This document shows positions 1-41,056 of a stretch of DNA of 41,183 bases, one piece after another. Origin of the DNA: a virus (lineage: Duplodnaviria; Caudoviricetes); IMG/VR virus record IMGVR_UViG_3300034965_000017, positions 1 through 41,183 of that record; one strand, written 5' to 3'. Every line of letters begins with the position of its first letter. Position 1 is the stretch's first letter. The notes beneath the pieces were generated by a model that was not told the origin of the DNA, made no database searches, and saw nothing but the letters and a program-made list of their open reading frames with translations. The translations under genes were made by a program, and so were the position numbers.

Positions 1-127
1 CGTAGGTGATGTGCAGCTGGGCGGCGTTGGCTTGGACGAAGTCGGCCAGGGCCTGGCCCTGGGCGCTGCCCGGAGTGACCATGAAGTCGCATGCCCGCCC
101 GGTGGCGTGGTCCTGTGCGTTCGCGTC
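1..127. repeat. 127-bp terminal direct repeat, copy 1 (circular assembly overlap)
   Basis: 1-127 is identical to 41057-41183; an ORF reads in frame across the join. Confidence 0.97.
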
Positions 128-832
128 GTGGCGTAGGCATCCCACGGTGAGGCCGGGGAACGCGGCGTTGATGGCGTCACGGCCTGCGATGGTGGTCGCC
201 TGTAGGCCATCGGAGCCCGGGCCGCTGGTGCACGTCGACGCGGCCAGGGTGGGGTCGCTCACTACCTGCCGCGCCATGGGTTCCCACCGGGCGTAGGCGC
301 CCGGGAAGCCGCTGGCCTGCACCGACTGCGCCGCGACCGTCACCGGCATCGACTGCCAGCCAGGGACGCGCAGGAGACGCTCGAAGAACTTGCGGGATGA
401 CGCGGCGGGGTCCATGCGCTGAGCGGGGGTGCCCCACCCTGCGCGTTGCTGGAACATGCCGAGGCTGTCCCGGTCGCCGTGGTCGAGGGCTCGCAGCCCG
501 GACTCCTGCATGGCTGTGGCGATCCCGACGACCGCGCCGAACAGCGGGACGTTGAGCTGGCGGCCGACGGCGATGATCGTGGCTGCGTTGCGCAGCTGGG
601 TGCGGTCCAGGCTGGTGTTGCTGCTCTGGCCGGCACTGGCGACGACGGCGCACCCGTATGCTGCCGGCGCTGCGCTGGGTGGCACTTGGCCGCCCATGAA
701 GAGCATGGTCAGCACCATCGCACCGATGACCCAGCACGCGGCGACGACAGGGACCAAGACGATGAGCACCTTGACGGCGCGTCGGATGAGGCTGGTCTTC
801 GCTATCTGTGCGGCTACTGCCACGATGACCAT
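1..832 (-). CDS. Conjugation-associated peptidoglycan hydrolase, N-terminal part (continues 41056->40926; 320 aa in total)
   Basis: ATG at 832 after AGGAAGG. N-terminal TM segment, lysozyme-like motifs ATAMQESGL / DSLGMFQQR / GWGT, then DHATGRACDFM. Missing from the ORF track because it crosses the origin. Confidence 0.8.
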   Translation of the reverse strand, partial: MVIVAVAAQIAKTSLIRRAVKVLIVLVPVVAACWVIGAMVLTMLFMGGQVPPSAAPAAYGCAVVASAGQSSNTSLDRTQLRNAATIIAVGRQLNVPLFGAVVGIATAMQESGLRALDHGDRDSLGMFQQRAGWGTPAQRMDPAASSRKFFERLLRVPGWQSMPVTVAAQSVQASGFPGAYARWEPMARQVVSDPTLAASTCTSGPGSDGLQATTIAGRDAINAAFPGLTVGCLRHDANAQDHATGRACDFMVTPGSAQGQALADFVQANAAQLHITY

Positions 833-867
833 TACGGTTCGGCCTTCCTGGAGAGGGTCTTACCTAG

Positions 868-902
868 CCCCTCCATGCCCGGCTGAAACGGGCGTGGAGG
901 GG
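868..902. terminator. 14-bp stem hairpin between the integrase operon and the conjugation operon
   Basis: cccctccatgcccg / cgggcgtggagggg. The single mismatch is a U-G wobble on + RNA and a C-A mismatch on - RNA; no U-tract on -. Confidence 0.5.
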
Positions 903-936
903 TGCTTCGTTAGTCAGGTGTCCGTGAACGTGCCGT

Positions 937-1128
937 TCATAGCCGTGTGATCCCGAACCCGTAGCACTCCGGGTCATCACACTCGTCCGGGTTCTCGCAC
1001 TCCGGGGGGTCACAGTGACCCACGCGAATGTCGTCGACCACGCAACCGCAATAGGTGCACGTCACGACCCTCGGGTCGAGACGGTCGACCAACTCGGCGA
1101 TGTCCGTGAAGTCCAGTTCAGAGCTCAC
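937..1128 (-). CDS. Small acidic Cys-rich (CxxC) hypothetical protein
   Basis: GTG start with GAGGAGG RBS; CTYCGC and repeated (P/D)EC units. Confidence 0.65.
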   Translation of the reverse strand: MSSELDFTDIAELVDRLDPRVVTCTYCGCVVDDIRVGHCDPPECENPDECDDPECYGFGITRL

Positions 1129-1285
1129 TGCGCCTCCTCAGTGCGACGCCGACGTGCACAATGGCGTCAGCCACTGCGAGCATCGCGTGAACGTGGGCCA
1201 TCTTCAGGAGGTACGCCTCATGCTCCCCGCTGTCGGCTTGCCGCGCGCGCTCGAGGTCGTCTTCGGCATCGCTGTAGTGACTCAT
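1118..1285 (-). CDS. 55-aa hypothetical protein (MSHYSDAEDDLERARQ...)
   Basis: ATG overlaps the integrase stop (TGATG); fills the gap to the next gene. Confidence 0.6.
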   Translation of the reverse strand: MSHYSDAEDDLERARQADSGEHEAYLLKMAHVHAMLAVADAIVHVGVALRRRSEL

Positions 1286-2154
1286 CAGGCTGCCCACTGG
1301 CTCGCCGCTCGCAGCGACGCATCAGGGATCAGGACGTACTGCTTGGTCGTCTCCGGCTTGGAGTGGCCCAGCAAGGCCTGGACGGCGAACAGGTCATGGG
1401 CGCCGGCGTAGCAGATGGTGCCGTAGCGGTGCCGTAGGCCGTGCGTTGTCGAGGTTACCCCGAGGACCTTGGAGACGAGCTTGCCGCAGTATGCCGGCGA
1501 CAGGTGCCCGTTGATCTGCCCGGGGAACACCCAGCCGGCCGGGGTTGCCTGCAGCAGGACCCGCACCTCGTCACACAGGGGCAGGATCCGTTCCCGCGAG
1601 CCCTTCCCGTGGACCCGCAGGTTCCATCCGTCGAGCAGGTCCCGCTCGACGTCGCGCGTGTGGACCTGGGCTATCTCGCCGCGGCGCAGGCCTTGCCGGG
1701 CCGCGAGGAGCACCATCAGGTGAACCCGCGGACTGGCTTCAGACAGCGCTGAGGTCAGAACCAGCTCTGACGTCGGTCGAGGCAGCCTGTGCGGGGTCGT
1801 GACGGCAGGAAGCCGCCAGGCGGGGTTAACCGCGATCTGCTCAGTGTCACGGGCCCACTTGTAGAACGCACGCAGCGCCGTCCGGTAGCTGCGCTTCGTC
1901 TCAGCACCCCAGGTCTGGGTCCCGATCCACGCGACCATGTCCATCAGCGTCACCTCGAACGGAGCCAGGCCGGTCTCCCGGGCGAACCTGCGGATCTGAT
2001 AGGTCCGCAGGTACTGAGTGGTCTGCGGCCGGTTCGCGGCGCACATCCACTCCCCCCACTGCTCGAGCGGCGTAACCCAGGACGATGGCACTGTGGCAGT
2101 CATGCTCGTGACGATGCGTCCGTCCGACGCCGCGAGAGCCAGATGGTGAGCCAT
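1285..2154 (-). CDS. int: Tyrosine integrase with ssrA-like C-terminus (..SQWAA)
   Basis: GLRRGEI, HGKG, HGLRHRYGT, LLGH, TKQY catalytic motifs; near attP; alternative start at 2103. Confidence 0.93.
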   Translation of the reverse strand: MAHHLALAASDGRIVTSMTATVPSSWVTPLEQWGEWMCAANRPQTTQYLRTYQIRRFARETGLAPFEVTLMDMVAWIGTQTWGAETKRSYRTALRAFYKWARDTEQIAVNPAWRLPAVTTPHRLPRPTSELVLTSALSEASPRVHLMVLLAARQGLRRGEIAQVHTRDVERDLLDGWNLRVHGKGSRERILPLCDEVRVLLQATPAGWVFPGQINGHLSPAYCGKLVSKVLGVTSTTHGLRHRYGTICYAGAHDLFAVQALLGHSKPETTKQYVLIPDASLRAASQWAA

Positions 2155-2333
2155 CAGTCACCCCAGATCGTGTGCCAGCTACCGACGTGCTCATCGAGTG
2201 CAGCGAACGCAGCCCTCTGGTCGTCGTCTACCTCACCAAAGGCGCCACAGCTTCCGCAGACCCAAGTCGACGGGCCATCTGGAGCGGCACGGGTCACCTG
2301 GTCGGCGACCACGCTCGTTTCGTCGTCGAGCAT
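2154..2333 (-). CDS. 59-aa putative Zn-binding protein (CGSC...H...H)
   Basis: TGATG-coupled to both neighbours. Confidence 0.6.
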   Translation of the reverse strand: MLDDETSVVADQVTRAAPDGPSTWVCGSCGAFGEVDDDQRAAFAALDEHVGSWHTIWGD

Positions 2334-2605
2334 CAGAGGTCTGCCCTGGCGCGGATGATCTCGGCAGCCGCAACGACATCGGCGGCCTCTTTTGCCTGGA
2401 CCACTGCGTACGCCGCGATGGCGCAGTGGACTTCGCACTGCTTGCAGGTGTGCGACACGACGCCCGGATCGGTCTGGACGGGTTCCCCGCACCAGCACGC
2501 GCCGGCGGCGACATGCGCCCGCTCTTGCGGGGTCTGGTTGACCGGCTGGGCTTTCCTCAGCGCCCATTCTGACCACAGCGCGTCGTGGTCACTCTGGGTC
2601 GTCAT
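2333..2605 (-). CDS. 90-aa Cys-rich hypothetical protein
   Basis: ATGA overlap with the repressor stop; CWC and CKQC motifs. Confidence 0.65.
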   Translation of the reverse strand: MTTQSDHDALWSEWALRKAQPVNQTPQERAHVAAGACWCGEPVQTDPGVVSHTCKQCEVHCAIAAYAVVQAKEAADVVAAAEIIRARADL

Positions 2606-2934
2606 GCCGCCACCTGGAGCTTCCTGGCGACAGCAGCGGCCTTGCGGGCCCTGAGAGCGGCGAGCTCGTCAAAGTCGCTGATCCAGCGGGTTGGGGGTTC
2701 AAGTCCCTCACGGCGCACTACGAAGAAGCTCGACACTGGCACCTCCAACACTGAGGCCAGCGCTGACAGGTCGTCGACGTCCAGCGCTAGCTCTCCGCTG
2801 ATTCGGCGGTGCCAGTAGGACTGCGACTTCCCGATTAGCCGTGGAAGTCGGTTGACTGTGATCCTCTGCCTAGCGAGGACACCCCGGACTTCGCCCGCTA
2901 CTGTTTCCCGGTCTGCCACTTCGTGGTCTGTCAT
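2602..2934 (-). CDS. Immunity repressor (HTH), extrachromosomal read-through form with degron-like tail (..LQVAA)
   Basis: HTH ITVNRLPRLIGKSQSYWHRRISG; divergent from cro; contains attP; upstream alternative start at 2955. Confidence 0.88.
   Translation of the reverse strand: MTDHEVADRETVAGEVRGVLARQRITVNRLPRLIGKSQSYWHRRISGELALDVDDLSALASVLEVPVSSFFVVRREGLEPPTRWISDFDELAALRARKAAAVARKLQVAA
2684..2718 (+). other. attP common core: 3' half of a tRNA, most like actinobacterial tRNA-Lys(CTT)
   Basis: CAGCGGGTTGGGGGTTCAAGTCCCTCACGGCGCAC contains a T-arm (GGGGG-TTCAAGT-CCCTC) and an acceptor 3' strand; the 5' half is absent. Isotype is from recall of actinobacterial tRNA sequences. Confidence 0.85.
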
Positions 2935-3037: not shown

Positions 3038-3268
3038 ATGACGATTAACGCCACCGCTGCCCATGTCGCAGATGCGGTACGCGACGCGATGTCGCAGCGG
3101 CGAGTGTCACAGACCGTCCTCGGTCGGTCATTGGGCATGTCGCAGACGGCGGTCTCACGCCGGCTCATGGGTGAAGTCCCCTTCGACGTCGTCGAGCTGG
3201 TCGCGATCGCCGGCCTGCTTCATGTCCCTCTCTCCTCGCTCCTGCCGAGCCCTGTGGTTGCGGCATGA
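3038..3268 (+). CDS. cro: Cro-like HTH regulator
   Basis: SQTVLGRSLGMSQTAVSRRLMG HTH; divergent from and similar to the repressor. Confidence 0.85.
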   Translation: MTINATAAHVADAVRDAMSQRRVSQTVLGRSLGMSQTAVSRRLMGEVPFDVVELVAIAGLLHVPLSSLLPSPVVAA

Positions 3269-3492: not shown

Positions 3493-3723
3493 ATGCCCCC
3501 ATCAGCTACGACTCATGCCGGACTCTATGACCGCTATCTGACAGACCTCGACACCGCGGTCTCCATGGTCGAGGTCATGCGAAATCTGCCAGACGAACAC
3601 CGGCCCGTCAAGGAACTCGCCGACGCGCTTGATCGTGTCATCGCAGCAGTCCGAAAACTGGACCTACCTCTGGGCTCAGCCTGCGAGATCCTCCAGGTAA
3701 TCGCAGATGGTGGCCAGTCTTGA
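3493..3723 (+). CDS. Hypothetical protein, 76 aa
   Basis: Helical ORF whose stop overlaps the next start. Confidence 0.65.
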   Translation: MPPSATTHAGLYDRYLTDLDTAVSMVEVMRNLPDEHRPVKELADALDRVIAAVRKLDLPLGSACEILQVIADGGQS

Positions 3724-4508
3724 GTGCCGCCGAGAGGTGGGACGCACTCGAAGGCGACAAACCTGGCCGCATCGGCCCAGGCGAGGCCGCAACTCTTGCG
3801 ACTGCGGCGCGCAGGGCCAGGCTCATCCCGCGTGGTTCGTCGCGAGAGATACTTGCGCTGCTGCTGCGACTTACCCGTGGCTCACTCGGCGTCGAGCGAT
3901 CGACGGGCTGGATCGCCAATGAGCTTGGGATCAACTACAGCACTGCCAAACGCTCACTCGACGCTCTCATCTCGGCCGACCTGGTGGTCGTTGCGATTCC
4001 TGGCATAGGACGAACACGGTCTACCTACCAGGTCGATTTCGTCCGCCTGCGCGCATTGGGTAACTCATCCGATTCAGACCGCTCGAACGACCACCCCCAG
4101 AAGGGGCGTTACGCCCCCTCAGAGGGGGCGTTACGCCCCCTCAGTGGGGGCGTTACGCCCCCACCGTCCACGCGCGCGCGCGCGTCTCTTCCTCTCTCCT
4201 TCCTTAACCCCCCTCCCCCAGAGCCCGCGACCGAGGCAAGAACTCAGACTTCCCCCGCGGCAAGCCGCGGGGACCCCCTTCCATGGCGAAGCCAACCCGA
4301 AACGAAATGCGCCCACGGCCGGACCCGCGCTCAAGGTGGATGCCGACTGTGCCAAACCACCCGCCGAGACGACGCCAAATCGGTCAAGCGCCAACTAGCT
4401 GAAGCGCGGGCACAGCAGAAGATCCAGCACCTAGCCGAACAGCGCGCGGCTGAGGCTCAAACCCAGGCAGCCTCTGTCGCACCACCTGCCGATTGGCGGC
4501 AGCGATGA
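3720..4508 (+). CDS. Putative replication initiator (wHTH, lambda O-like organisation)
   Basis: HTH STGWIANELGINYSTAKRSLDAL; internal iterons; C-terminal C-x-H...CxxC. Confidence 0.7.
   Translation: MSAAERWDALEGDKPGRIGPGEAATLATAARRARLIPRGSSREILALLLRLTRGSLGVERSTGWIANELGINYSTAKRSLDALISADLVVVAIPGIGRTRSTYQVDFVRLRALGNSSDSDRSNDHPQKGRYAPSEGALRPLSGGVTPPPSTRARASLPLSFLNPPPPEPATEARTQTSPAASRGDPLPWRSQPETKCAHGRTRAQGGCRLCQTTRRDDAKSVKRQLAEARAQQKIQHLAEQRAAEAQTQAASVAPPADWRQR
4103..4162. repeat. Three palindromic iterons with 22-bp period (putative ori)
   Basis: (G)GGGGCGTTACGCCCCC x3, followed by a (CG)n run and a pyrimidine tract. Confidence 0.8.
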
Positions 4509-4753
4509 CCAACCACAACGAGGCCATGACCAGACCAACGACCTACCGGCCGGAGTGCGGCTCGAACTCTGGGTGGTGGGCTCACAAACGAGCCTCGGAG
4601 AAGCCATGCCAGCCCTGCCGCAAGGCCGTCGCCATCGGGCTTCGAAACGAAAACGCTCTAAGCATCGGGCAGGCCATTGACGAGCTGCGCGACATGAAGA
4701 ACGGCCGCCGGCGTTGGAACCCCAACCTGGCTGAACCGAAGGACGAGCAGTGA
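4505..4753 (+). CDS. Putative Zn-binding protein (C..H..CxxC)
   Basis: ATGA-coupled; ECGSNSGWWAH...PCQPC. Confidence 0.7.
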   Translation: MTNHNEAMTRPTTYRPECGSNSGWWAHKRASEKPCQPCRKAVAIGLRNENALSIGQAIDELRDMKNGRRRWNPNLAEPKDEQ

Positions 4754-4932
4754 AGCCGGATGCCGAGGCGCAGCGGGACCACCGACGGCTGGTCCAGCAC
4801 ACCATCCAGGCCGCTACCGAACAGTTCCGCTCCGCACGCGCAGCTGAGCAGGACGACAGCATCATCAAGGTCTGCACGTGCGGTGGACGGTTCATCGGAC
4901 GCCGCTGTCCGTACTGCGGGGCTTTCACATGA
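4750..4932 (+). CDS. 60-aa Zn-ribbon-like protein
   Basis: CTC...CPYC; coupled at both ends. Confidence 0.65.
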   Translation: MKPDAEAQRDHRRLVQHTIQAATEQFRSARAAEQDDSIIKVCTCGGRFIGRRCPYCGAFT

Positions 4933-4980
4933 GACAACAACCGGTCGGGGGCTTTCACATGAGACAACAACCGGTCGGGG
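4921..4980. repeat. Perfect 30-bp tandem duplication
   Basis: gctttcacatgagacaacaaccggtcgggg x2. Confidence 0.95.
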
Positions 4981-17263: not shown

Positions 17264-17311
17264 CTACACCGCTCTCTCGCACCGTTCCTCAACCTGCCCA
17301 GGAGGCAACCA

Positions 17312-17635
17312 ATGGCGTATCTCGCCGCGCAACAGATCGCCGTCACCGGGACGGCGCCGACCTACGCCGCCGCCTCCGCTGGTGGAGACACCGCAAGCCC
17401 AGACGACAGGACGTTCCTGCACGTCAAGAACGCCAGCGCAGGTGCCCTGACGGTGACCCTCGTGGTCCCCGGGAGCACCTACGCCCAACCCAACCCCGAC
17501 GTCGCAGTCTCCGTCCCCGCCGCAGGCGACCGCTTCATCGCTATCCCGGCCGGCGCCACCGACATGTCCACCGGGCTCGTCGGATTCACCTATTCAGGCA
17601 TCGGCAGCCTGACCGTCGCACTCGTGAGGATCTGA
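17312..17635 (+). CDS. Small beta-rich virion protein
   Basis: AGGAGG RBS; FLHVKN; inside the tail operon. Confidence 0.7.
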   Translation: MAYLAAQQIAVTGTAPTYAAASAGGDTASPDDRTFLHVKNASAGALTVTLVVPGSTYAQPNPDVAVSVPAAGDRFIAIPAGATDMSTGLVGFTYSGIGSLTVALVRI

Positions 17636-30584: not shown

Positions 30585-30644
30585 CCATCCGGCCCCCACT
30601 GATCCACCGCCACCTGGTCCAGAACACCGCCAGGTGGCGGTGCC

Positions 30645-30854
30645 ATGTCCATCACCGAATTCAAGGAGCAAGCCATGGGCGAGACCACGCCCGAATCATC
30701 CGCTGAGGCACTGGACGCCGGCGACCATCCCGACGAGGCACTCCAGCTGGAGCACGACGACGCAGACCTGACCGGAGACCCGATCCCCGAGGACGCCGGA
30801 CCGCTCCCCGAGCTCGAGCAGGACCAGTCCAACCCACCCGAGGAGCTCGGATGA
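30645..30854 (+). CDS. Very acidic 69-aa protein
   Basis: ATGA-coupled to the endolysin; alternative start at 30675 with AAGGAG. Confidence 0.55.
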   Translation: MSITEFKEQAMGETTPESSAEALDAGDHPDEALQLEHDDADLTGDPIPEDAGPLPELEQDQSNPPEELG

Positions 30855-32800: not shown

Positions 32801-33286
32801 ATGACCGCCATCCCGGAGGAACCTGCCACCCGGTTCATCCACCGCATCCAGTTCAGCCACGGCGCGATCGAGATCACCTACCTCGAGCATGCCGAGGTCC
32901 GAGAGGGCGGCAAGTCCCACATGCAGCACGTCCTGACCCTGACCCGTGTCTCGCATCCCAACCTGATTGCAGCCTTCGCTCACGCGACGAACCAGCTCCT
33001 CGATGGAGCGCTGCAGGACTGGACCGAGACCGACACAAGCGAGGACGGCCCGGACCTAGCGATCGTCACCAAGACCAGCGTTAAGTCCCTGCTCACACCA
33101 CGAGAGACGGACGTCCTGGAGCTCCTGGCCGCCGGCGACTCAACACCCACGATCGCCAGACGGCTCTTCATCACCACCGCAACAGCGAAGAGTCACGTCA
33201 CCTCGACCTACGGCAAGCTCGGCGCCCACAACCGAGCCTCCGCAGTCATGGCGGCAGTCCGCCTCGGACTCATTGCCCCCAGCTAG
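32801..33286 (+). CDS. LuxR-type HTH transcriptional regulator
   Basis: LTPRETDVLELLAAG....IARRLFIT..TAKSHV...YGKLG..NR. Confidence 0.88.
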   Translation: MTAIPEEPATRFIHRIQFSHGAIEITYLEHAEVREGGKSHMQHVLTLTRVSHPNLIAAFAHATNQLLDGALQDWTETDTSEDGPDLAIVTKTSVKSLLTPRETDVLELLAAGDSTPTIARRLFITTATAKSHVTSTYGKLGAHNRASAVMAAVRLGLIAPS

Positions 33287-33420: not shown

Positions 33421-34236
33421 ATGAGCCACCCCATCCCCCTGACCGATCCCCTCTCGATCGCCTGGATCGACTGGTGCCGCAACGAGCACGTCCCCCCGAA
33501 CACCATCTCCCGCCGGATCGCGACCCTTCGATCCCTCGGCAACGCCGGAACAGCGACCCGCGAGGACGTCGAAGCGTGGTGGGCCGGCCGCACCAACCTG
33601 GCCCCAGCTAGCCGTGCCAACGACCTGGCGGGCATCCGCAGCTTCCTCAAGTGGTGCCGGCGCTGGGAACATCGCAGTGACGACCCGACTCTTCGCATCG
33701 ACCCGCCGCACGTACCTGCCGGACTCCCGCACCCCATGGCCAAGCACGACCTGCAGCTCGCCCTGGACACCTTCCCCGCGGACCTGCGCCGAGCCGTATG
33801 CATGGGCGCATACGCCGGACTCCGCATCTCCGAGGCCGCAGCCCTCGACTGGGCCCAGCTCGACGTCGAGGCACGGACGCTCCGGGTCCTGCACGGCAAA
33901 GGCCACGCAGGCGGCAAGGAGAGGCTCATCGCGATCTCTCCGGTCCTGATCGACCAGCTGCTGCCCGACGTCGGAGGCAACGTCGTCTCGGCTGGCCACC
34001 AGCCCTACTCCTCGGCGTCGCTGCAGCGCCGAATCAACAGGGCGTTCGAGCGGGCAGGGATCCACGGGACCTCCCATGGGCTCCGTCACCGGTACGGGAC
34101 TATGGCCTATCAGGCGACCGGAGACCTGCTCGCGGTCGGCCGCATGATGGGCCATCAGAGCCCGGTGACCACTGCGATCTACGCCGACCCGAGCAACGAC
34201 ATCGCGGTCAAGATTGCCGCGGCTGTGGTGCGGTAG
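33421..34236 (+). CDS. Second tyrosine recombinase (short Int/XerC-like)
   Basis: GLRISEA, HGKG, HGLRHRYGT, MMGH, TAIY. Confidence 0.92.
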   Translation: MSHPIPLTDPLSIAWIDWCRNEHVPPNTISRRIATLRSLGNAGTATREDVEAWWAGRTNLAPASRANDLAGIRSFLKWCRRWEHRSDDPTLRIDPPHVPAGLPHPMAKHDLQLALDTFPADLRRAVCMGAYAGLRISEAAALDWAQLDVEARTLRVLHGKGHAGGKERLIAISPVLIDQLLPDVGGNVVSAGHQPYSSASLQRRINRAFERAGIHGTSHGLRHRYGTMAYQATGDLLAVGRMMGHQSPVTTAIYADPSNDIAVKIAAAVVR

Positions 34237-34345: not shown

Positions 34346-34547
34346 GGAGACCGGCTGACCCGGCGCGACACGCCGCCCAACAGCCATGCCTACCAAGACC
34401 TTGACAGACTCGGTACGCTCGGCGGTGTTCTCGGAGGCGCCTTTCCTCCGGAGGTTGGCGTCGAGCAGCACAAAGGCTTTTCACTGATCATTGCTTGGCT
34501 TGGTGGGTGTGCGGTGGTGGTGTCGCAGGCCGGGTCAGCCGGTCTCC
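34346..34547. repeat. 19-bp perfect inverted repeats (34346-34364 and 34529-34547) around a 164-bp spacer
   Basis: GGAGACCGGCTGACCCGGC and its reverse complement; extends by GCGACAC with a 2-nt indel. Confidence 0.9.
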
Positions 34548-37821: not shown

Positions 37822-40325
37822 GCGACCTCGACACTGTGCAGGCGCGCCAACCTGTTCCGCGCCTTGTCCGGGTCCGCCGTCGTGGACAGGGCTTCGAGGA
37901 GGTGGGGGTGGGCGGCCATGTCCATGCGGATCCGCTCGATCGACGCGCCGTCCGAGAAGACGAACTCCCTCGCGCCCCGCTTCCCCTTGCTCGTGGGGCG
38001 GGACAAGGTCCCGAAGATCCCCTCGTATCCGACGCCTTCAGCGACCCCGGGCAGGAGCTGGAGCGCGTCGTGTTGGGCCTGCTCGTCGGTGAGCCTTCCA
38101 ATGAACGCCGCTGAAACGAGGTTGGCCAGGTCGAGCCTGAGCAGGTCACTCGGGTTCTGGGAGGCCAGGAGCACGCGGGTGTTGTGCTTGCGGCTGTCCC
38201 GGGATGCCCGGTCGATGAAGCGGCGTCCCGCGGAGAACGTGCCTAGCGCCCACGCCTCGTCCAGAAAGATCCCCTTCCGGGCGTGCACATCCCCGGCATA
38301 CATCCCTCTTTGCGCCAACCATGCTGCGAGGAACAGCACGGCCATGCTCAGTCGCTCGTCCAGGTCATCCGTGCCACCCGACGCATCATCGGGCAGCGCG
38401 AGTCCGCGGAGGCTGTACACCGTCAGGAGGGGCGCGGCTTGGGCCTTGTCGAGGTAGTACCCGGACGGGAAGATCAGCCGCCCGTGGCTCGTCTTCGCCG
38501 CCTCGAGGTAGAAATCCCGCATGTACCCCGCATGCCTGACCAAGTCGGGGTCCCCGCCGAGGTCTCTGAGGGCGTCTAGGACGTAGTTGGGTGCGGAGGT
38601 GCTCGTGGCGTGGACCTGCCCCACAGCCCGCAGGAGGGCGACCTCGGTCAGGACGTGGTCCTGCATCTGTTTGGGGAGCATCGACCTCAGGACCGACGTG
38701 GTGAGCATGCGGCGCGTCTCATAGGCGCGCTCAACCGCGGCAGCCCATTCGGCTTTGGTGTCGTAGTGCTCTACCGCCGGCTCGGCGATCACCCGGTAGG
38801 TGTTCAGCACACCCTCGGGCGCCTCGAGGAGGTCGACCGCCTGGGAGTGGTCGGCGAGCTCGGGCAGGCGGCACAGCGCGGTCAGGCGGCCGGAGGGGTC
38901 GAGGACAGTCCACGGGACACCCTGCATCAGCGACCGGTAGATGACGTTCCCGCCCGCCGTACTCTTCCCCCCGCCCAGGCCTGCGACGACGACACCAAGG
39001 CCGGACTCTTCCTTGCGCTCCGTGGCTTCCCACGGCTCCCACGTCACAACCCTCTGGCTGGTCCCGCTGGTCTCCCCCAGGTGGATGCCTCTACGGTCAC
39101 CGACCTTCGCCGTTGCCGCCGGCACAGCTGCGGACAGGGTGGTGACGGGCATCCGGCGCCGGTACGCCGTCGACCCCAACGGCTCACCGGGGATGAACTC
39201 CCGGCCCACCGCCAGCTGGTCCGCTGGCCTGCAGATACTGATGCCGGGCTGGTACAGCTTGCGGACCTCATTGGCCCGCTCGAGCGCCTCCTCCTGCGTC
39301 GCGCCGGACACGGACACGCGGAAGTAGCCAGTCGTGCGGGTGGACAGCCCTGACAGGCCTGTGGCCAGGTCGTCCTCGACTGCGAGGGCGCGGGACGCCT
39401 GCCGGTCCAGGGCGCCCGGTGCGGGTTCGCGGTGCTCCTGCTCGTAGTGCTCCTTCTGGGAGCGGACCTTCTGGATGGCGTGCCGCATGGCGCTGCCCAC
39501 CTTGGCTGCATCCTCGACATCGACCCGCGCAGACCACTCGACAGGAAAGCCGAGAGCGTCGGTGCGCTGCATCCATGGCGTACCTGAGGGGATGTCCATG
39601 TCGCCCATCCGGCCCACGCTCATGACGCAGACGTGCCGTTCCACCATCTCCCCGTTGGCTTCACCGGTTACCAGGATCGTGCGCCCGTACGGGCGGGTGT
39701 GCCACTGGACGGTGTCGGTGAACTCGGCCAGGTCCTCGGTGTCCCACTGCTCGGCGTCTGCGTTGCCGAGCGTCAACGGCGCCGGCAAACCCAACCCGGT
39801 AGACCGGTGCAGCAACCACTCAAGCTGCCGCGGGGTTGCCGGGATGGCATCCATGCCGGGCGCGGCCATGATCTCGCTCGTCTCACGGATCGCTTTGCCC
39901 AGCCCTGCGACTTCACGGTCACTGAGCGCCCCGGCCAGGGCGCCAGCGATCCGGTAGAGGCCTTTGCGGGCGGGGATCTCCACGCCCAGGTAGACCTCTT
40001 TGTCACTCATGTTGCGGCCGGCGAGGTGCTCCTGGTCCCGCATCAGGTAGTCGCGCCACCCGGGCAGCGGCGCGGGCGCGTTGCCGTCGTGCGCGGAAGC
40101 CCACTCGCTCACGGGGTAGGGGCGGGTCGTGACCCGGATGTGGACGTTTCTCCTGACGAGCTGGGCGTAGCAGTCGGCGCCGTCACGGATCAGCTGCTCG
40201 CGCACACCGTCCGGGCGGAAGCTCCAGCCTTGGGGTTCGAGGAGGTACCAGGCGTGGATCCGGTCAGCGGTGACAGTGCAGTGCCCGCTGATACTGCGCA
40301 GCGCGAGGCCGGTCTTCCTGGTCAT
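37818..40325 (-). CDS. virB4: VirB4-like conjugation ATPase (TcpF/ConE type)
   Basis: 835 aa from ATG 40325 (ATGA-coupled); GLGGGKST, VLDPSG, IFLDEAW, RDSRKHN..LLASQ. Confidence 0.88.
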   Translation of the reverse strand: MTRKTGLALRSISGHCTVTADRIHAWYLLEPQGWSFRPDGVREQLIRDGADCYAQLVRRNVHIRVTTRPYPVSEWASAHDGNAPAPLPGWRDYLMRDQEHLAGRNMSDKEVYLGVEIPARKGLYRIAGALAGALSDREVAGLGKAIRETSEIMAAPGMDAIPATPRQLEWLLHRSTGLGLPAPLTLGNADAEQWDTEDLAEFTDTVQWHTRPYGRTILVTGEANGEMVERHVCVMSVGRMGDMDIPSGTPWMQRTDALGFPVEWSARVDVEDAAKVGSAMRHAIQKVRSQKEHYEQEHREPAPGALDRQASRALAVEDDLATGLSGLSTRTTGYFRVSVSGATQEEALERANEVRKLYQPGISICRPADQLAVGREFIPGEPLGSTAYRRRMPVTTLSAAVPAATAKVGDRRGIHLGETSGTSQRVVTWEPWEATERKEESGLGVVVAGLGGGKSTAGGNVIYRSLMQGVPWTVLDPSGRLTALCRLPELADHSQAVDLLEAPEGVLNTYRVIAEPAVEHYDTKAEWAAAVERAYETRRMLTTSVLRSMLPKQMQDHVLTEVALLRAVGQVHATSTSAPNYVLDALRDLGGDPDLVRHAGYMRDFYLEAAKTSHGRLIFPSGYYLDKAQAAPLLTVYSLRGLALPDDASGGTDDLDERLSMAVLFLAAWLAQRGMYAGDVHARKGIFLDEAWALGTFSAGRRFIDRASRDSRKHNTRVLLASQNPSDLLRLDLANLVSAAFIGRLTDEQAQHDALQLLPGVAEGVGYEGIFGTLSRPTSKGKRGAREFVFSDGASIERIRMDMAAHPHLLEALSTTADPDKARNRLARLHSVEVA

Positions 40326-40669
40326 CGGGGTCTCCTTGGCGGGCGGAACGTTTGCACGGACGGCTTGGCATGGCCACGCCCAGCGGTGACCTGGTGGGTG
40401 AACGCGGTGACAACGCTCCGTAGGGGTCGGTCGTGGTCCACAACCGACCCGATGACCTGCGTCAGCGCGGCAGTCACGAGGAGCGTCCACACCAGCGGCC
40501 AGAACCCCGCCCCGATACCCAGGCGCAGCTCGATGACCTCGAGGAGGGCGAACAGGCCCGCGCCCACGGCGTAGTCGACGTACCGGGCGCGCCACGGCAG
40601 AGTCACCCCGGGCGGGCCCAGCCAGACGCCGTCGACCTGGTAGATGGAGTCGTCCACAGGCAGCCTCAT
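40322..40669 (-). CDS. TcpE/VirB3-like 2-TM protein
   Basis: 115 aa, 2 TMs, directly upstream of VirB4; ATGA-coupled. Confidence 0.68.
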   Translation of the reverse strand: MRLPVDDSIYQVDGVWLGPPGVTLPWRARYVDYAVGAGLFALLEVIELRLGIGAGFWPLVWTLLVTAALTQVIGSVVDHDRPLRSVVTAFTHQVTAGRGHAKPSVQTFRPPRRPR

Positions 40670-40914
40670 GAGATACCGACGAGGTGGATTAGGGACCGCC
40701 CCAGGGCCGGGGCTGCGGTGGGCACGGCTGCGATACCCAGGATCAGGCAGGCGAGGACTGCGCCGGCGACGACTTTCATGGCCTGTTTGTTGTTGCCGCT
40801 CCTGGCCATCATGAACAGGGAGCAAGCCAGGATGAGCAGGAGCAGTGGGATGACGTTGCCTTTGATCCAGGTCTGGAGGTTGGCGGTGCCGACTGCGGTG
40901 GCGAGAGCGTGCAT
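40666..40914 (-). CDS. Small 2-TM pilin/TcpD(ConC)-like protein
   Basis: 82 aa; GAAAGGAA RBS; two TMs separated by a basic loop. Confidence 0.65.
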   Translation of the reverse strand: MHALATAVGTANLQTWIKGNVIPLLLLILACSLFMMARSGNNKQAMKVVAGAVLACLILGIAAVPTAAPALGRSLIHLVGIS

Positions 40915-40925
40915 GACGGTTCCTT

Positions 40926-41056
40926 TCAGGGTTGGGTTTCGGGCCAAGACACATGGACGTGAGTGACGTGGTTGGCGTTTGGGTCTCCGCGGTCCTCCAT
41001 CAACCGCCACCCCTCATCGGCGCGGGCGACGTTCCAGATGTGCTGCCGGTAGATGA
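40926..41056 (-). CDS. Same hydrolase, C-terminal part (His-rich metallopeptidase-like, NHVTHVHVS)
   Basis: In frame with 1-832 across the circular join. Confidence 0.8.

Follow-up and report, generated by a model that had tools for sequence, protein, structure and literature searches.

A conjugation-type gene block behind the integrase of a tailed phage, headed by a leader with a predicted antisense RNA

Results

Gene order around the integrase of a tailed phage

We analysed IMG/VR record IMGVR_UViG_3300034965_000017 (Duplodnaviria; Caudoviricetes), a viral DNA of 41,183 nucleotides referred to here in full as the window, and in particular the minus-strand operon that runs from its immunity repressor gene (rep) through a tyrosine integrase gene (int) into a set of conjugation-type genes, the transfer block. 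The window is taken as a full circle of 41,056 bp because a 127-bp terminal repeat closes the record ends; its genes encode terminase, portal, capsid, tail tube, tape measure and lysins, and by this content it is a circular, complete tailed phage (a siphophage). The host is likely a soil actinobacterium. The best named relatives of the VirB4-like ATPase of the block belong to Intrasporangiaceae (70-76%), and the host family is placed by this likeness alone, since five VirB4-bearing Intrasporangiaceae genomes gave no good match to the bacterial attachment site, attB (best E 0.002).

On the minus strand the order is rep, orf90, orf59, int, orf55, orf63, a 104-bp gap and a hydrolase-like gene, the first of the transfer block (Table 1). 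A sequence-only reading of this DNA had described these genes as chained by overlapping stops and starts, and we find this to be so: rep and orf90 overlap in ATGA (2602-2605), TGATG joins orf90 to orf59, orf59 to int (at 2154) and int to orf55, and orf55 overlaps orf63 by 11 bp. The conjugation operon was said to follow in the same direction after about 100 bp, which the gap at 833-936 bears out. Most of 22 aligned integrases, however, start at the residue matching ATG 2103, so that 2154, where orf59 is coupled to int, is probably not where int mainly begins.

Table 1. Features of the rep-int operon, the transfer block and their surroundings (window coordinates)
Feature	Position	Strand	Remarks
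Cro-like helix-turn-helix (HTH) protein	3038..3268	+	divergent from repressor
Immunity repressor (rep), 110 aa	2602..2934	-	C-terminus ...QVAA; ssrA-like tag, label by analogy to BPs
attP core, 3' half of tRNA-Lys(CTT)	2684..2718	+	inside rep; 42 bp identical in phage G002
orf90	2333..2605	-	no family match
orf59	2154..2333	-	no family match
Predicted -10 hexamer CATCGT of weak leaderless integrase promoter	2111..2116	-	7 nt before ATG 2103
Tyrosine integrase (int), 272 aa from ATG 2103 (289 aa from 2154)	1285..2103	-	C-terminus ...WAA
orf55 and orf63, small accessory genes	937..1285	-	chained to int
Predicted cis-antisense RNA, ~80 nt	834..915	+	hairpin 1 836-864; hairpin 2 867-903, then T-rich tail
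Predicted antisense -10 hexamer CACGAT, TG before it	821..826	+	inside codons 3-4 of hydrolase gene
First transfer gene, membrane-anchored cell-wall hydrolase-like, 320 aa	5' part 1..832, 3' end 40926..41056	-	spans circle joint
82-aa membrane protein	40666..40914	-	head of ICE-type module; pilin-like by size and position only
115-aa membrane protein	40322..40669	-	VirB3/TcpE position; label by position
VirB4/TcpF-like ATPase, 835 aa	37818..40325	-	AAA_10 3e-19; TcpF 7e-21
VirB6-like polytopic membrane protein, 577 aa	36088..37821	-	CD3337/EF1877 family 2e-6, below cut-off
FtsK/SpoIIIE-type translocase, 511 aa	34535..36070	-	32-34% to FtsK of chromosomal ICE copies
Second tyrosine recombinase	33421..34236	+	faces transfer block; 87% identical in phages G002 and G412

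A transfer block derived from integrative and conjugative elements

Judged by its sequence, the transfer block consists of hydrolase–VirB3–VirB4–VirB6–FtsK genes derived from an integrative and conjugative element (ICE) and set behind the integrase. It holds the pair that marks a canonical type IV secretion ICE, VirB4 plus an FtsK-like coupling protein. All six transfer genes are open, with ATPase motifs, and their GC content at third codon positions (GC3) matches that of the flanking recombinases. The VirB4 module is present in 29 host loci. It is also found in two Streptomyces plasmids typed as non-mobilizable, next to a gene of ~690 aa whose annotation reads FtsK or DNA-transfer protein.

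Three further viral genomes bear on the capture of such genes by phages. Phage G001 carries the same module (VirB4 81%) together with head and tail genes, on a contig that has no integrase. Phage G002 shares with the window the integrase (90%), the 42-bp att core and the second recombinase (87%), and its slot holds a different block, in which a lysozyme-like gene and small membrane genes accompany a 712-aa FtsK that has a weak TraB match. In phage G412, which has another integrase and in whose repressor no tRNA core was seen by eye, an FtsK 44% identical to that of G002 occupies the same slot; the structural genes of G002 and G412 are near-identical, so that these two do not count as independent backbones. 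Such arrangements are uncommon. Among 160 integrase-homologue loci VirB4 was found in none and an FtsK match in six, one of them downstream on the same strand, and among 80 second-recombinase loci an FtsK match was found in four; neither the VirB4 nor the FtsK of the window had a match among 50,697 deposited phage records.

With no relaxase and no gene in the VirB8 position, the block can be credited with DNA transfer only as a possibility. No relaxase family was found among the 57 window ORFs scanned, and RepSA is absent from the phages (0/3, window included), while it lies just beyond the module locus in the five host genomes checked. The definition of an actinomycete ICE (AICE) is matched in part, with Int and FtsK present, RepSA absent and no RepAM/Prim-Pol match in the scan of window ORFs. 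A ~190-aa gene that follows the VirB6-like gene in 27 of the 29 host loci and in G001, and is called 'VirB8' by position, is missing from the window, whose copy of the module may be a reduced one. No integrated copy with the transfer block was found; an integrated relative with the second recombinase occurs in 0 of 401 actinomycete genomes, and behind 10 host-genome integrases there was no VirB4 and a single distant FtsK match. AICEs are described as transferring double-stranded DNA by one FtsK-type protein (PMC3218068), and minimal FtsK/VirB4 systems without a nickase have been reported (PMC13492992).

Some arrangements around the block and its relatives deserve record. In Intrasporangiaceae ICEs (L007-L035) the VirB4 module is joined to an AICE-like FtsK-RepSA unit with varied upstream cargo. 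The two-recombinase layout recurs in viral contigs L230, L231, L233, L241 and L245 and in Gordonia phage Bowser. Beside the second recombinase of the window, a perfect 19-bp inverted repeat (34346-34364 / 34529-34547) flanks ~165 bp and holds the FtsK stop codon; two short motifs inside it have the opposite orientation relative to FtsK in G001, and the segment between the repeats is possibly an invertible promoter segment. Viral contig L269 (8000-17891; G413), which gave no leader match, combines an integrase, a second recombinase, an Spd-like gene and, on the same strand, an FtsK of 684 aa. In L202 (7100-17861), apparently not a phage, a BPs-type integrase homologue heads a different conjugation-like cluster. 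Between transfer block and lysin, G001 carries an HNH plus ResIII helicase gene (L001 12061-14109), likely a defence gene.

A two-hairpin leader that pairs better on the antisense strand

The gap between orf63 and the first transfer gene holds two hairpins, of which the first (836-864) mirrors the ribosome-binding site of that gene. The sequence-only reading had noted the second, at 868-902, as a minus-strand hairpin with a C-A mismatch and no U-tract; both details are correct on that strand, but it forms, with the first hairpin, a single element whose pairing is better on the plus strand, where the mismatch becomes a G.U pair. Two hairpins precede the first transfer gene in all four transfer-bearing phages (window, G001, G002 and G412; the G001 start codon is at L001:2047), and their folds contain 20 G.U pairs in the antisense orientation versus one in the sense orientation. 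Fold z-scores are -5.1, -3.2, -3.2 and -2.3 for antisense, compared to -2.2, -1.9, -0.9 and -2.6 for sense.

A -10-like hexamer reading in the antisense direction lies inside codons 3-5 in 4/4 phages. From its end to the far edge of the start codon there are 6-7 nt, a distance that we call the gap of the hexamer; it reads CACGAT in the window and G001 and TACTCT in G002 and G412, which have unrelated first genes. The hexamer occurs at this gap in 1 of 41 other window starts versus four of four transfer leaders, and a scan for the whole leader design returns one window site, at 832. The leader therefore bears, as a sequence signature and with mixed covariation, the marks of a countertranscript, that is, an own promoter and a structured RNA opposite a translation start, and it likely encodes a cis-antisense RNA that covers the site where ribosomes bind the first transfer mRNA. 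This predicted antisense control, overlooked by the sequence-only reading, is likely the dominant control of the block.

We then looked beyond these four phages. An RNA model built without the hexamer gives four further copies beside a start codon, with TANNNT at gap 7 in three of them: G002 before its second transfer gene, L056 and L057, the last two having nearly the same leader. Among two-hairpin leaders of viral loci, the four phages excluded, the hexamer stands at gap 6-7 in 16 of 192 versus 335 of 11,672 other starts (p 1.9e-4). Chance alone would account for roughly one in three of these 16, and some had been known beforehand; the signal peaks at gap 7 (5.7% of two-hairpin leaders versus 1.0% of other starts). 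The corresponding counts in ICE and plasmid loci are 3/59 and 112/4,042. The leader has no copies in ICE loci (0/29) and no matches in Rfam (0).

Not every result favours the antisense reading. G412 lacks the antisense preference in its z-scores (-2.3 versus -2.6), and the further copy L308 has no -10 hexamer. Covariation is supported on the four founding leaders (87% paired, 1/500), from which the structure itself was drawn, and unsupported on an eight-sequence alignment (40.8% paired, 154/500; slid versions better). Other phages have this leader type ahead of lysis-region, WhiB and second-integrase genes as well, so that it is not specific to transfer, and it is likely a general phage device that was put before a captured block. 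Genes 29 and 37 of phage Bowser (L318, KU998235) begin behind an antisense two-hairpin leader of this kind, its -10 again lying within the first codons. In the literature searched, with subscription literature thinly covered, we found no description of such a small antisense design or of phage-borne conjugation blocks, and the design can be tested in Bowser, a cultured phage.

Antisense leaders also lie before ORFs of 15 codons, which overlap or directly adjoin the gene that follows (L056 3030-3156; L311 4480-4610 and 7420-7551); this suggests control via a leader peptide. Weak RNA-model matches with no convincing adjacent start were dropped, in L309, L310, L315, L316, L317, L258, L278 and L005 as well as in the window (30585-30676 and 17289-17363).

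A probable integration-dependent switch that separates the repressor promoter from the block

The attP core inside rep, at the position named in the sequence-only reading (2684-2718), matches the 3' half of tRNA-Lys(CTT) in 11 host loci. It was matched in 135 of the 401 actinomycete genomes (E<=1e-4), a tally that takes in three unpublished genomes, on which nothing else here depends. Of 12 attB loci returned 11 were examined, 10 of them with a called tRNA-Lys(CTT); 34/35 positions are identical in five and 33/35 in six. In modelled att joints the repressor is stopped at 83 of 110 aa in 11/11, and the tagged tail is removed. With attP in rep, the cut of the repressor on integration, a short tyrosine integrase 3' of rep, an Ala-Ala tail and a divergent cro, the sequence indicates that the phage carries a BPs-type integration-dependent immunity switch, as described for that system in PMC3694055, PMC4557955 and PMC9262239.

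BPs (clusters G, N and P) shares with the window a 35-bp tRNA attP core inside rep, a stop codon made at the joint, tagged Rep and Int, a divergent cro and a short integrase, and its rep and int are cotranscribed from PRep (PMC3694055, PMC9262239). Unlike BPs, the window has two extra genes between rep and int, a transfer block downstream and a predicted integrase promoter, which PMC3694055 proposes only as an evolutionary step.

A -10-like hexamer, TACGGT, stands 6 nt before the ATG of rep, and the repressor mRNA is likely leaderless from this site. L336, a related element integrated in tRNA-Lys, has its repressor and its integrase at opposite ends; therefore the repressor promoter would part from the transfer block on integration, and its read-through into the block would be possible only in the circle. 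Promoter and transfer genes thus lie on opposite sides of att, the layout of Tn916.

A predicted leaderless integrase promoter stays with the block

The sequence-only reading went further: it placed the transfer operon downstream of repressor, attP and integrase only in the circle and suggested that its expression may be gated by excision. This is correct for read-through from the repressor promoter and overstated as a strict gate, because integration would leave a probable integrase promoter attached to the block. Of M. smegmatis promoters, 79% carry ANNNT at -6 to -13, with TANNNT preferred, and 24% of transcripts are leaderless (PMC6448022). We examined 161 integrase loci, 13 of which yielded no start, and find ANNNT ending 4-8 nt before the Int start in 44 of 85 non-redundant loci (shuffles 15.1±3.5; 0/2000), with a peak at 7. 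The signature persists in 26/59 clusters at 70% identity (shuffles 9.9; 0/2000) and 14/32 clusters at 55% identity (0/2000), compared to 12-13% at in-frame internal starts. It is also found in 6 of 12 host-genome homologues (14 loci, two without a start; shuffles 1.4±1.1, 1/2000), and the integrase of G412, an unrelated one (27%), carries it too.

A search of Int starts for the strict form, TANNNT, gives only 6/86, so that ANNNT was used instead, and the hexamer of the window is itself a CANNNT with no clear -35, both of which count against a strong promoter call here. On balance, a weak leaderless integrase promoter likely lies on the transfer side of attP and is kept with the block in the prophage, where it may supply integrase for excision. 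How integrase is expressed in a BPs-type prophage once cut off from the repressor promoter is left open in PMC3694055, and a weak leaderless promoter is a testable answer. Host-side inward TANNNT within 400 nt of attB was found at only 2/9 host sites, and the integrase gave no match for an arm-binding domain.

A promoter of the block's own within 833-936, which, if active in the prophage, would undo the proposal of the sequence-only reading by its own terms, did not emerge from a sequence scan: no suitably placed minus-strand -10-like site is shared with G002. A single CANNNT (932-927) was rejected as not kept in G002, and a LexA box at 923-937 was rejected for a spacer of 5, not the 4 of the consensus.

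Discussion

The account towards which we lean, tentatively, is one of a threshold, in which excision adds repressor-promoter read-through that outruns the antisense RNA. It starts from what the sequence itself shows: the DNA is circular, attP is a tRNA-Lys core, integration cuts the repressor, the block is co-directional with the operon, its leader has two hairpins, and both -10-like hexamers are present. Once the phage is integrated, nothing but the weak leaderless integrase promoter (CATCGT, ATG 2103) would read toward the block. This trickle would be silenced by the ~80-nt RNA, which, made from a promoter inside the first transfer gene, would pair with the leader and ribosome-binding site and so spare the lysogen the wall hydrolase and the membrane proteins. 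After circularisation, transcripts from the stronger repressor promoter (TACGGT) would be added and would titrate the antisense RNA. The weakest step is the last, in which the FtsK translocase, aided by the VirB4 module, would move the phage circle as double-stranded DNA with no relaxase.

It is improbable that the repressor promoter is instead the sole source of transfer mRNA, with an inactive integrase hexamer and the leader hairpin acting as a leaky attenuator. Cotranscription of rep and int from PRep in BPs (PMC3694055, PMC9262239), the overlapping stops and starts along the operon, the lack of a placed minus-strand -10-like site in 833-936 shared with G002, the lack of a called U-tract terminator on that strand and the rarity of inward TANNNT near attB (2/9 host sites within 400 nt) all fit such strict gating, but the leaderless signature at Int starts is conserved, and such gating would not account for the strand bias of the leader or for the constant place of its antisense -10. 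More credible, if still somewhat unlikely, is a block that is captured cargo no longer transferring DNA, or having some other task at the envelope, for instance superinfection exclusion or protein export, with an antisense RNA that only quiets toxic genes. The missing relaxase, RepSA and VirB8-position gene point this way, as do the rarity of such blocks (VirB4 in 0/160 integrase-homologue loci, FtsK downstream on the same strand in one) and the cluster N slot beside the immunity region, which holds variable lysogen-expressed genes (PMC9262239). Six open genes with ATPase motifs and a GC3 like that of the flanking recombinases argue otherwise, as do the recurrence of one leader, across four phages, ahead of two unrelated transfer blocks and the existence of relaxase-free FtsK/VirB4 systems (Streptomyces plasmids; PMC13492992).

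We consider it distinctly improbable that the 868-902 hairpin is a minus-strand terminator and that the block has its own promoter, driven by a phage activator and independent of attP. Terminators without a U-tract occur in actinobacteria, this hairpin is the strongest on the minus strand from the rep start to 833 (-27.1 kcal/mol), and the phage encodes LuxR-like and WhiB-like regulators; however, only 35 bp separate hairpin and start codon, with no ANNNT in promoter position, and the hairpin mismatches fall on the minus strand in three phages. That a single uncultured contig might be an assembly chimera of phage and ICE is barely credible, given that the contig is circular, that G001 joins the same module (VirB4 81%) to head and tail genes behind the same leader, and that the leader is found in 0/29 ICE loci. 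The threshold account keeps the geometry of Tn916 as a boost and gives it up as a gate. Nothing we find supports the three-way choice of lysis, lysogeny or transfer that had been suggested, as the circle is also the lytic template and the relaxase and VirB8-position gene are lacking. Possible but doubtful, in our judgement, is a wider extension of the threshold account, in which an actinophage family has repeatedly captured conjugation machinery (VirB4-type, TraB-type) into its integrase operon and forms true hybrids that pass their circle particle-free, excision raising transfer against a portable antisense-RNA threshold device used before many risky genes.

FinP of F plasmids is a cis-encoded antisense RNA against a transfer-operon leader. 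Anti-Q of pCF10 is likewise a cis-encoded countertranscript against such a leader (PMC6540685), which the predicted RNA of the window resembles; unlike Anti-Q and FinP, to which it has no sequence link, and with no Rfam match, it has its promoter in the first codons of its target, and the design also precedes non-transfer phage genes. Circularisation of Tn916 joins a promoter to the transfer genes across the att joint (PMC9632896, PMC6540685), and in the window too a promoter would be joined to transfer genes only in the circle; the window differs in being a phage rather than an ICE, in having no relaxase, in a second promoter that probably stays and in a predicted antisense RNA at the first gene. 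It shares an FtsK/SpoIIIE translocase without a relaxase with AICEs and the relaxase-free FtsK systems of actinomycetes (PMC3218068, PMC13492992), and its VirB4 module with Intrasporangiaceae ICEs and Streptomyces plasmids. Unlike AICEs, it has no RepSA and no VirB8-position gene, and its hydrolase has moved to the front, all within a full virion-coding genome.

Prophages linked to conjugation genes are described as phage-ICE tandems, two whole adjacent elements said to be non-hybrid (PMC13651849), whereas in the window a single 41-kb phage circle holds the genes as part of a phage operon. FtsK-like genes were noted in phages Bowser and Schwabeltier (PMC4982277), and Bowser also resembles the window in its BPs-type switch and second facing integrase; it has no transfer block beside the integrase in the annotated stretch. 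PMC9513070 and PMC10865867 contributed little further. If the block works, a tailed phage would gain particle-free spread that bypasses receptors and surface defences, and the boundary between phage and ICE would be crossed within a single operon.

Other features of the phage genome

A LuxR-type HTH gene after the lysis genes (32801-33286) and a WhiB-like gene in the early region (4493-4753) are possible regulators. Three partly palindromic repeats with 22-bp spacing (4094-4162) lie within a 262-aa gene (3720-4508) and are likely a replication origin within its initiator gene. A perfect 30-bp tandem duplication is found at 4918-4977.

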